A stretch of DNA of 64,000 bases, taken from contig CAVURJ010000002.1 in the NCBI GenBank assembly GCA_963743885.1, forward strand, positions 109,020-173,019, given 5' to 3'. The stretch comes from Candidatus Moraniibacteriota bacterium. Its GTDB lineage: Bacteria; Patescibacteriota; Minisyncoccia; Moranbacterales; UBA1568. Position numbers and translations under genes: made by a program. Below the pieces are notes generated by a model. That model saw only the letters and a list, made by a program, of their open reading frames with translations, was not told the DNA's origin and ran no database searches. This document shows, in pieces, positions 14,128 to 15,780 of the stretch (its first letter is position 1; the number at the start of each line of letters is the position of its first letter).

Positions 14128-15780
14128 ATGGAAAAATCTGGAGTTTTTGCGCACTTGAAACAGGAAATCGCTGATAAAGTGGTTGTTTTTGGCCGCAATC
14201 AGCGGATAGCCGGTCTATTCGGACGGCAATCCGCGTGGCTTTTTGACTTCCGTAACATATTCCTTGAGCCGGAGATTTTGGAATCCATAGCGGATCTTTT
14301 TTTCGAGCGGATGGCAGCGGAGAACATCGAGGTGCCGTACCAGGTCGGTGGCGTGGAGACGGCGTCCATACCGCTCGTGGCCGGCATCGTGATCGGCGCG
14401 AAGAAGCGCAGCCTTGATATCAACGGTTTTTTCGTGCGCAAGTCCCGCAAGAAGAGTGGTTTGCTCAAGATGATCGAAGGGCAGTTCCGCGAGCGGGACG
14501 TGGTGCTGGTCGATGATCTCATGAATACCGGGCAGAGCCTGATCCGTCAAGTGGAGATCATGGAGGGTTTGGGTCGGAGAGTGCGGGCCGTATTCGTCAT
14601 CCTGCGTTTCCGGGATGAAGCGTACTACCGGTATTTTCATGAGCGCGGCATCCGGATCATCAACCTCTTCACGCTTGATGATTTCGGTCTGCAGCTCGGC
14701 GGTGATGAGGCTCAGGAAACGAATCGGATGCCGTTTCGGAAGGAGTGGGTCTTCCGGAGTCCAGATCCAGACCTCTTCATCGTTGCGCCGAAATCAGCGC
14801 CAGCGATCGACGACCTGAGACTGTATTTCGGGACTGATAGCGGCCGGTTCTGGGCGCTGGACAAGAAGAGCGGGGAAACGATCTGGGAGTATCGTATCGG
14901 TCTTCGGAAACGCGGCAATGCCATACTTTCCTCGCCAGCGCGTATCGGCGATTTGGTCTGTTTCGGTGCCGATGATGGTAATATCTATGCGCTTGACGCG
15001 GAGACAGGAAAGCGCCGATGGGTCTTTATGGAAGCCGATCGCGTCGCGGCGTCACCGTGTGCCGTGCCGGCCGAAAGAATGCTGCTTGCCGGGATCGGGA
15101 CAGGCATCTGGAGCAAGCAGGGGAGCGCGATCGCTCTCGATGCGCGGACCGGGAAGAAACTTTGGGAATACCGGACGCCGGCACCGCTCCATGCGTCACC
15201 GAAGCATTCGGCGAAACATGGGCTGGCAGTCTTCGGGTCTGAGGATGGGAGCGTATACGTGCTGGATGCCCGGACGGGAGCACTCCGATGGAAGTTCGTT
15301 TCCGGCGGTGCAATCAAGGGCTCGTTCGCTCTTGATGAGAAGCGCGGGCTGGTTGTCTTTGGTTCGTATGACGGCTTTGTCTATGCGCTCGATATCGGAA
15401 GCGGTCGCGAACGATGGAGGTTCCGCACTGAGGCAGGCATCCATTCTGATCCGCTCATCGAGGAGGATACGGTGATAGCGGCATCGCTCGATAAGCGTCT
15501 TTACGGCATCTCGCTTGATGATGGCGCGCGCCGCTGGATGTTTGATGCGCGGAGCCGGATCTTCGCATCGCCGATCTTCGCGGATGGGAAGATATATGTC
15601 GGCTGCAATAACGGCCGATTCCATGAGGTCGATCCGGCGACCGGCCGGGAGACGGGGTTCTTCCAGACGACGGAACGGATCACGACGAGAGCCATCTATG
15701 ATCCGGCGACTGGGCGGTTCTATATATCGACGTTCGCGAATGAGGTATACTGCTTATATCAAGATGATAGCGAGGATTAA
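14128..15780 (+). CDS. Fusion protein: type I phosphoribosyltransferase (PRTase) domain plus PQQ-like beta-propeller repeats
   Basis: N-terminal PRPP-binding motif 'VVLVDDLMNTGQSL'. The C-terminal half has at least 7 repeats of '(D/N)G.(V/I)YALD..TG...W.(F/Y)' typical of PQQ/BamB-like propellers. Confidence 0.6.
   Translation: MEKSGVFAHLKQEIADKVVVFGRNQRIAGLFGRQSAWLFDFRNIFLEPEILESIADLFFERMAAENIEVPYQVGGVETASIPLVAGIVIGAKKRSLDINGFFVRKSRKKSGLLKMIEGQFRERDVVLVDDLMNTGQSLIRQVEIMEGLGRRVRAVFVILRFRDEAYYRYFHERGIRIINLFTLDDFGLQLGGDEAQETNRMPFRKEWVFRSPDPDLFIVAPKSAPAIDDLRLYFGTDSGRFWALDKKSGETIWEYRIGLRKRGNAILSSPARIGDLVCFGADDGNIYALDAETGKRRWVFMEADRVAASPCAVPAERMLLAGIGTGIWSKQGSAIALDARTGKKLWEYRTPAPLHASPKHSAKHGLAVFGSEDGSVYVLDARTGALRWKFVSGGAIKGSFALDEKRGLVVFGSYDGFVYALDIGSGRERWRFRTEAGIHSDPLIEEDTVIAASLDKRLYGISLDDGARRWMFDARSRIFASPIFADGKIYVGCNNGRFHEVDPATGRETGFFQTTERITTRAIYDPATGRFYISTFANEVYCLYQDDSED

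Follow-up and report, generated by a model that had tools for sequence, protein, structure and literature searches.

A phosphoribosyltransferase–beta-propeller fusion family associated with peptide-maturation gene clusters in Patescibacteria

Described azole-peptide clusters, propeller proteins and the fusion locus

Bacteria of the candidate phyla radiation (CPR, or Patescibacteria) make up a substantial part of bacterial diversity; their genomes are tiny, and they are believed to be host-attached. A total of 110 clusters for linear azole-containing peptides (LAPs), each with a YcaO protein and usually also a nitroreductase, have been reported in 93 CPR genomes, and this report mentions no phosphoribosyltransferase (PRTase), propeller or tetratricopeptide repeat (TPR) proteins (Sharrar et al. 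mBio 2020; PMC7298704). Here we describe a protein in which a type I PRTase domain is fused to a beta-propeller (hereafter the fusion), encoded at 14128..15780 on the + strand of a 64,000-nucleotide stretch of a Candidatus Moraniibacteriota bacterium genome (GenBank assembly GCA_963743885.1, contig CAVURJ010000002.1, positions 109,020 to 173,019; the whole stretch is called the window), in the vicinity of YcaO and SagB genes. Literature searches on YcaO, SagB or cyclodehydratases in CPR retrieved only the LAP-cluster report, from which the fusion component is absent, and full-text searches combining YcaO, linear azoles or peptides made by the ribosome and modified after translation (RiPPs) with phosphoribosyltransferases or pyrroloquinoline quinone (PQQ) returned nothing relevant.

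Compared with the pathways for thiazole/oxazole-modified microcins (TOMMs) and LAPs, including SagBCD, McbBCD and the CPR LAP clusters (PMC7298704), the locus shares a YcaO with a PxPxP C-terminus, a SagB and an adjacent precursor rich in Cys, Ser and Gly. Three features that define LAP clusters are found in the window, namely a PxPxP YcaO, a SagB-type FMN dehydrogenase and an adjoining Cys/Ser/Thr-rich precursor. The SagB-family FMN-dependent peptide dehydrogenase (9266..10018, + strand) scores 122 bits against TIGR03605 (cutoff 78.4), and its gene overlaps the start of the YcaO cyclodehydratase gene (SagD type; 10015..11613, + strand; PF02624, E 1.3e-49). The YcaO protein ends in ...VPHPFP and scores 208 bits against TIGR03604, slightly under the cutoff of 219; among solved structures it is closest to the cyanobactin heterocyclases LynD, TruD and MusD, the alignment being confined to their YcaO half, and the E1-like or RiPP recognition element (RRE) N-terminal part is missing. 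Considering the PxPxP C-terminus and LynD and TruD as the nearest PDB relatives, we assign this YcaO to the azoline-forming type, and the presence of YcaO and SagB leads us to predict azoles in the mature product. Unlike TOMM/LAP pathways, no E1-like, Ocin-ThiF or RRE partner could be detected by Pfam or NCBIfam among the open reading frames (ORFs) between 2159 and 23627, although a very divergent partner is possible. Further differences are a precursor whose "leader" is a transmembrane segment and whose tail is strongly acidic, two TPR membrane proteins and the PRTase-propeller protein as constant partners, and the lack of YcaO and SagB in one third of the clusters.

The fusion gene is a single uninterrupted frame of 550 codons, which excludes the possible split into two genes raised in the original prediction, an annotation made from the letters of the window. 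Its product (550 aa) is soluble, and neither a signal peptide nor a true transmembrane segment was detected by hydropathy analysis. The AlphaFold2 (AF2) model has a pLDDT of 90.9 and contains a confident alpha/beta core followed by a propeller, corresponding to an orotate phosphoribosyltransferase (OPRTase)-like type I PRTase domain (residues 1-190; 14128..14697, + strand) and an eight-bladed BamB/PQQ-like beta-propeller (residues ~203-545; 14734..15762, + strand). The approximately eight-bladed PQQ/BamB-type propeller proposed originally is therefore what the AF2 model, domain scans and PDB sequence relatives agree on, and the suspicion that no characterised protein has this architecture still holds after literature and PDB searches, in which no such protein was found. 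No solved structure aligned beyond the propeller in the PDB sequence search, and the two-domain layout is without structural precedent there.

Among Pfam models, PF13570 gives the top score for the propeller. BamB identity was rejected because the score against TIGR03300 (134 bits) is below the cutoff of 285, no signal peptide or lipobox is present and the N-terminus is a PRTase. A quinoprotein dehydrogenase was also rejected, since TIGR03075 and other models of PQQ-dependent dehydrogenases give 81 bits against a cutoff of 480 and the propeller comprises ~340 rather than ~550 residues. Eight-bladed propellers of the BamB/YxaL type have the same fold; however, BamB belongs to the BAM machine as a periplasmic lipoprotein, whereas the propeller of the fusion is cytoplasmic, lacks a signal peptide and a lipobox and is covalently attached to an enzyme domain. 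Such a covalent connection between an enzyme domain and a PQQ-like propeller is also found in ACSF4/AASDH (PF13570), but these eukaryotic proteins contain an adenylation domain instead of a PRTase and have the opposite domain order.

The phosphoribosyltransferase domain across the family

The search for the same architecture in other genomes yielded hundreds of full-length homologues, revealing a large family. In a collection of 5.8 billion proteins, 1702 matches were found at E <= 1e-5; the best 120 of them have lengths of 458-586 aa (almost all 530-580), span no less than 81 % of the query (almost all 92-100 %) and, the self-match aside, share 39-51 % identity with it. Where homologues have names, these are only "PQQ-binding-like beta-propeller repeat protein" or "BamB/orotate phosphoribosyltransferase", and the named organisms are Patescibacteria (Paceibacteria, Kaiserbacteria, Wolfebacteria and others). 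As a word-indexed search with the PRTase domain alone gave only fragments, an exhaustive phmmer search against 1.84 billion representatives at 50 % identity was used instead, which detected 527 proteins at E <= 1e-10; the best 150 of these are nearly all fusions of ~530-580 aa with an N-terminal PRTase. Among contigs from one genome per species, full-length matches are labelled as Patescibacteria, besides generic labels ("bacterium"). Labels from outside this group belong to two very short contigs (Gammaproteobacteria and Bdellovibrionales) and to one "Bathyarchaeia" contig, which bears bacterial ribosomal protein L28 and is probably mis-binned. The fusion thus represents a large, uncharacterised CPR/Patescibacteria family which is present in databases under generic names.

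The N-terminal region had originally been read as a type I PRTase, and the domain scan by which this was to be checked did identify a PRTase whose best relatives are OPRTases. The Pfam model PF00156 covers residues 72-158 (E 1.8e-5) with 24.6 bits, slightly short of the gathering score of 26.3, and NCBIfam TIGR00336 (pyrE) matches residues 32-186 (E 7.6e-20; 71.4 bits, below the cutoff of 106.8). When residues 1-203 were compared with all PDB sequences by phmmer, the 14 best matches were all OPRTases, including 2yzk (E 4e-10), the human enzyme 2wns (3e-9) and the Mycobacterium tuberculosis enzyme 5hkf (7e-8). The binding loop for 5-phosphoribosyl-1-pyrophosphate (PRPP) that defines type I PRTases is present as VVLVDDLMNTGQS (residues 125-137), and the loop quoted in the original prediction, VVLVDDLMNTGQSL, was located at residues V125-L138 (14500-14541, + strand).

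Residue conservation was examined in 224 full-length members with 22-50 % identity to the window protein, with the domain aligned to Escherichia coli PyrE. The acidic pair of the PRPP loop, D129 and D130 (E. coli D124 and D125), and G118 of the preceding E-G motif are present in all 224 members, and E117 of the same motif in 223. Within the flexible loop (R104-K108; 14437-14451, + strand), R104 (E. coli R99) is conserved in 223 members, K105 (K100) in 222, R107 in 220 and K108 (K103) in 204, so that the catalytic residues R99, K100 and K103 of OPRTases all have counterparts, and in the phosphate loop G135 and N133 are found in 213 and 207 members, respectively. These PRPP-binding and catalytic positions show the top conservation of the whole protein and exceed every propeller residue. 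By contrast with this retention, most residues that bind orotate or pyrophosphate have been replaced family-wide (K26 by Pro/Leu, F34 by Leu/Ile, Y72 by Val/Thr and K73 by Ala), and F35 and R156 alone have been retained, as F39 and R162, respectively; R162, the counterpart of the orotate-binding R156, occurs in 180 of the 224 members. The former orotate and pyrophosphate regions contain instead near-invariant residues specific to the family, namely W37 (216/224), D40 (221/224), Q72 (219/224) and E77 (223/224). In comparison with PyrE (TIGR00336; 2yzk, 2wns, 5hkf and 1oro), the domain therefore shares the type I fold, the DD pair of the PRPP loop, the R-K-x-x-K flexible loop, the E-G motif and the R156 equivalent, but differs in its score under the cutoff, in the four replaced residues, in the new invariant W37, D40, Q72, E77 and N133, in carrying a propeller and in being located among peptide-maturation rather than pyrimidine genes. 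Judging from these sequence features, the PRTase domain is derived from OPRTases, and we infer that it is a working PRPP-dependent transferase whose acceptor would be a molecule other than orotate. In the window copy this domain is typical, with one deviation among 39 conserved columns; the propeller deviates from the family at 22 conserved columns, for example with GIGTGIW in place of GLEFGLW and with a change of the otherwise invariant E324. The window protein thus appears as a long-branch, divergent member of the family, in a rearranged cluster.

Two alternative explanations bear directly on this domain. The fusion could be a housekeeping orotate PRTase (PyrE) of pyrimidine synthesis or salvage, the propeller being incidental and the gene linkage described below coincidental. 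The OPRTases as best sequence relatives and the name "orotate phosphoribosyltransferase" in some JGI records would agree with such a role, which nevertheless appears highly improbable considering the TIGR00336 score below its cutoff, the family-wide replacement of the K26, F34, Y72 and K73 equivalents, and a linkage that involves peptide-maturation genes, never pyr genes, and is absent from control loci. It is also conceivable that the domain senses PRPP or nucleotides in the manner of PyrR, PurR or GfcR and gates peptide maturation or export by nucleotide status, which is critical for salvage-dependent CPR bacteria. PRTase folds have repeatedly been recruited as ligand sensors (PyrR, Bacillus subtilis PurR and GfcR), NF002620 ("OPRTase-like protein") matches the fusion at E 7.5e-7, and conservation of the PRPP residues would be compatible with binding alone. 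PyrR, PurR and the archaeal GfcR/NF002620 proteins indeed resemble the fusion in having a PRTase fold used beyond nucleotide synthesis and in keeping the PRPP motif. However, those proteins carry nucleic-acid-binding domains or functions, whereas the fusion has no DNA- or RNA-binding domain and no regulatory target is evident, and the catalytic flexible-loop residues R104, K105 and K108 are conserved as well; we therefore regard a sensor as improbable.

Linkage to a peptide-maturation cluster

A first census of 22 fusion-bearing loci, based on all-against-all BLAST of six-frame ORFs, revealed four recurring neighbour families, which were identified by Pfam and NCBIfam as YcaO, SagB and two families of TPR proteins (TPR280 and TPR370). 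The sample was then enlarged by seven look-ups of distant members and by 80 metagenome loci retrieved with PRTase-specific patterns, hidden Markov models (HMMs) of the neighbour families were built, and the loci were de-replicated at 90 % identity. This resulted in 82 loci, 32 of which are well flanked (at least 5 kb upstream and at least 3 kb downstream), and 57 loci from other phyla with only a related propeller (1.02 Mb in all) served as controls. A TPR partner was detected in 30 of the 32 well-flanked loci, YcaO in 21, a precursor recognized by the rule-based detector described below in 20, SagB in 19 and a rhodanese-domain protein in 11; in 16 loci, SagB and the fusion are no more than 100 bp apart. 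Using the same HMMs, we found no YcaO, SagB, TPR280 or TPR370 and a single rhodanese in the 57 control loci. The canonical gene order, seen for example in L085 and L086, is TPR280, TPR370 and a small ORF divergent from YcaO, SagB and the fusion, with junctions that overlap or are as short as 3 bp. Very probably, the fusion belongs to this peptide system as a dedicated part.

YcaO and SagB are not constant members of the cluster. In 11 of the 32 well-flanked loci neither of them is encoded within 10 kb of the fusion, and YcaO-less loci (L001, L011, L018, L089-L091, L104 and others) keep the TPR pair and usually the peptide, the rhodanese or both. Fusions from loci with and without YcaO are phylogenetically interleaved: the nearest neighbour carries the same label in just 20 of 32 cases, the mean identity is 0.44 and 0.50 inside the two groups and 0.46 between them, and no alignment column separates one group from the other. 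The existence of YcaO-less clusters with indistinguishable fusions implies that azole formation is no prerequisite and weakens the proposal of an azole-specific function. The role of the fusion would accordingly be tied to the peptide/TPR module, with azole formation as a frequent add-on, unless YcaO and SagB are encoded elsewhere in those genomes. The same data bear on a possible cascade of cyclisation, oxidation and phosphoribosylation, in which an azole made by YcaO and SagB would be N-phosphoribosylated, by analogy with the succession of dihydroorotase, FMN-dependent dihydroorotate dehydrogenase and OPRTase. The canonical order YcaO-SagB-fusion with its overlapping or 3-bp junctions and the retention of R162 in the OPRTase-like domain would fit such a cascade, but the loci that lack both YcaO and SagB, whose fusions are interleaved with the others and show no discriminating residue, speak against it, and an azolium riboside is without precedent; we consider it quite improbable. 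Several unannotated genes located at the place of YcaO (U460, U410, an AMP-binding-like gene, a 415-aa gene in L001 and the 544-aa ORF of the window) were also tried as divergent YcaO proteins or partners, and were rejected with hhalign probabilities of <=1 %; these neighbours had no PDB relatives.

A candidate precursor peptide also belongs to the cluster. In the window it is encoded at 11720..12058 (+ strand; 112 aa), a short distance downstream of the YcaO gene, and its sequence is MAKTSVRAVRLLYLSILTLVVFVVGLFAKNSDKATLSKGDEDDDSFRVPSASADTPSGAAASSGASASSGDGWDCSSSGCGCAGCAGSSAGSSASGAGAGAGAGAGAGAGGG. It consists of an N-terminal transmembrane helix, a junction (SASA|DTP) and a Gly/Ser/Ala tail with four Cys residues (DCSSSGCGCAGCAG) that ends in (Gly-Ala)n. 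The 3' end of the gene (12003-12055) is a hexanucleotide repeat, (CTGGTG) x 8.8, which encodes the (Gly-Ala)n stretch and may be prone to slippage and therefore variable in length. Twenty such ORFs in 17 loci have one common design, with a basic N-terminus, one hydrophobic helix, a linker, a junction and a tail. The junction has the form xAxA-D/E, typically AHAD(A/V)P, ~35-45 residues past the start of the helix, and the tail of 23-71 residues is composed of 48-98 % Gly/Ser/Asp/Glu/Ala/Thr, contains 1-7 Cys and has a net charge of -3 to -39. A conservative rule-based detector recognized 45 precursor-like ORFs, distributed over 36 of the 82 fusion loci, and no such ORF in the 1.02 Mb of control sequence; the family is absent from NCBIfam. 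The TPR partners of the window are TPR370 (12055..13155, + strand), a conserved TPR-like protein of the ~370-aa family with an N-terminal transmembrane anchor, and TPR280 (5661..6596, - strand), a TPR protein of the ~280-aa family with an N-terminal anchor, which is the most constant partner of the fusion. According to hydropathy, the precursor, TPR370 and TPR280 each have a single N-terminal anchor helix after basic residues, predicting an N-in, C-out topology, and the fusion, YcaO and SagB are soluble. With soluble enzymes and a precursor predicted to be C-out, we infer that any PRPP-, ATP- or FMN-dependent chemistry precedes translocation of the tail, and the TPR proteins would meet the peptide outside the cell.

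Several further observations concern individual loci. L015 and L021 each have two fusion copies within 10 kb, each copy with its own set of TPR, precursor and YcaO genes. A rhodanese adjoins the fusion in L011, L015, L021, L024, L087, L089, L090 and others, and none is present in the window; the one copy inspected (L011) has an N-terminal membrane anchor. This neighbour points to modification of the Cys-containing peptide by sulfur or persulfide chemistry. In the YcaO-less locus L091 (11765-13734), the fusion is followed after a 3-bp gap, in the same operon, by a TagF-like CDP-glycerol glycerophosphotransferase and an IspD/TarI-like nucleotidyltransferase, which hints at polyol-phosphate (teichoic-acid-like) chemistry.

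Module fusions, proposed function and remaining features of the window

A minority of family members carry extra domains. According to Pfam, the longer members (741-971 aa) include a formyltransferase joined to PRTase and propeller (P0142), an Asp/Asn beta-hydroxylase placed N-terminally (P0206) or C-terminally (P0266), an N-terminal Stf0 sulfotransferase (P0223), a radical SAM domain with the PRTase (P0230) and a C-terminal HlyC-type protein acyltransferase (P0216 and P0227). P0239 and P0265 have ~690 extra residues of unknown type. The idea that the longer members might be SagB or YcaO fusions was thus dismissed, as Pfam shows formyltransferase, beta-hydroxylase, Stf0, radical SAM and HlyC domains instead. 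These extra domains are tailoring enzymes for peptides, proteins or glycoconjugates, and the PRTase-propeller behaves like a reusable module of a modification pathway, comparable with RRE (PqqD-like) domains, which likewise occur standalone or fused to many tailoring classes in peptide-maturation clusters. The analogy concerns behaviour only; the folds are unrelated, and the PRTase-propeller, unlike RRE domains, keeps an apparently functional active site.

Such reuse is also what a non-catalytic recognition or scaffold hub would display, binding the precursor or bridging YcaO, SagB and tailoring enzymes in place of the E1-like/RRE "C protein", with a PRTase fold serving only structural or ligand-binding purposes. 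Besides the joining of the module to many unrelated tailoring domains, as in RRE domains, this explanation draws on the lack of a detectable E1-like, Ocin-ThiF or RRE partner among the scanned cluster ORFs and on the structural relatives of the propeller, which are typically docking platforms for peptides or proteins. On the other hand, PRPP-binding and catalytic residues that are near-invariant in 224 divergent members, above the level of the propeller, would be unexpected for a decayed pseudo-enzyme, and the fusion is present in clusters without YcaO too. We consider a purely non-catalytic hub rather unlikely.

The explanation we favour, to which we would give about an even chance, is that the fusion is an active PRPP-dependent transferase that matures the peptide of the cluster, with the propeller as docking platform. 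It would be a cytoplasmic, OPRTase-descended enzyme with a remodelled acceptor pocket, rigidly joined to an eight-bladed docking propeller. The precursor would be made in the cytoplasm, where the propeller might bind it or an enzyme complex holding it; YcaO and SagB, where present, would convert Cys and Ser to azoles, and the PRTase domain would use PRPP to 5-phosphoribosylate a nucleophile of the peptide. Insertion or export of the modified peptide would follow, after which the TPR proteins would handle it outside the cell. The suggestion in the original prediction that the propeller could localise a PRPP-dependent activity corresponds to this proposed docking role. What had not been foreseen there is a large conserved Patescibacteria family, the OPRTase origin of the domain with loss of the orotate-binding residues, and the peptide-maturation context.

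A number of points weigh against a peptide-directed transferase. All characterised type I PRTases act, to our knowledge, on small molecules, and the PF00156 and TIGR00336 scores of the domain are both under the curated cutoffs. YcaO and SagB are missing from about a third of the well-flanked loci as described above, and the N-terminal transmembrane helix of the precursor predicts an exported tail, so that modification would need to precede insertion. Fusion to many tailoring domains is equally expected of a non-catalytic recognition module. In the window itself, the fusion lies 2.5 kb from YcaO and SagB with an oppositely oriented gene in between, and several near-invariant propeller residues are missing from this copy.

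In the searched literature we found no account of the linkage between the fusion and a peptide-maturation cluster, of the precursor peptides as a family or of the module's reuse with other tailoring enzymes, nor has a PRPP-dependent enzyme been described there as a constant part of ribosomal-peptide maturation. If the peptide is what is modified, its phosphoribosylation would be a new post-translational chemistry for RiPPs, and PRTase plus propeller would be a new recognition/docking module reused with several tailoring enzymes. More tentatively, the fusion might be the first representative of a novel class of RiPP tailoring enzymes that attach PRPP-derived 5-phosphoribose directly to a ribosomal peptide and, together with optional azoles and lineage-specific fused hydroxylase, acyl-, sulfo- or formyltransferase domains, yield an anionic peptide decorated with sugar phosphates and either anchored in the membrane or secreted; we see this as possible but doubtful. 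Such a decorated peptide might take the functional place of teichoic-acid-like polymers in protein-anchored form, or might be a factor of the surface or of host interaction in ultra-small CPR bacteria, which, despite their tiny genomes, devote 6-10 genes to the cluster across many lineages. The CPR LAP clusters may also be re-read in this light, with the peptide, the TPR proteins and the fusion, not YcaO and SagB, as the constant core. The defined gene set and ~20 precursor sequences are usable for heterologous reconstitution.

Other genes around the fusion in the window are less widely conserved. Downstream of it are a 223-aa orphan (15843-16514, + strand), a 367-aa protein with an SGGIDS PP-loop-like motif (16527-17630, + strand), for which no Pfam, NCBIfam or PDB match was found, and an SSF-family symporter (19367..20863, + strand). 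These three genes recur jointly near the fusion only in L013 and L088; the 223-aa and 367-aa genes were accordingly not accepted as conserved partners, and the set may represent a lineage-specific accessory for tailoring or transport. Two signal-peptide paralogues that are 38 % identical (13371-14027 and 17737-18375, both - strand; no Pfam or NCBIfam match) flank the block of fusion, 223-aa and 367-aa genes, which looks as if it had been inserted between tandem paralogues. Upstream, an Lnt-like apolipoprotein N-acyltransferase (2159-3817, - strand), a UbiA-family prenyltransferase (4792-5664, + strand), the 544-aa orphan (6503-8137, + strand) and, directly before SagB, a RidA/FkbO-chorismatase-like protein (8144-9226, + strand) are not conserved in other fusion loci. 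A role in anti-phage defence was considered and rejected, as PADLOC models gave no match for the fusion and its five neighbours. At the edge of the cluster, a 903-aa protein (20916-23627) is predicted to have ~12 transmembrane segments and carries a TPR domain at its C-terminus; its membrane part has no family match, and the layout is like that of GT-C-type glycosyltransferases with TPR domains.

Insertions in the 23S rRNA gene and a 23S gene without a preceding 16S gene are traits known in CPR bacteria. The 23S rRNA gene of the window (24315-28909) spans 4595 nt compared with 2925 nt for the Rfam model, corresponding to insertions of ~1.6 kb with no convincing intact ORF (the longest, of 156 aa, is on the opposite strand), and is followed by a 5S rRNA gene (28998-29105); no 16S gene precedes it within the window. 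The 4.6-kb 23S gene, against a model of 2.9 kb, and the lack of a preceding 16S gene imply that the window fits a CPR genome. Further along, tRNA genes are located at 36176-36259 and 59990-60062, and four more are clustered at 61310-62009.

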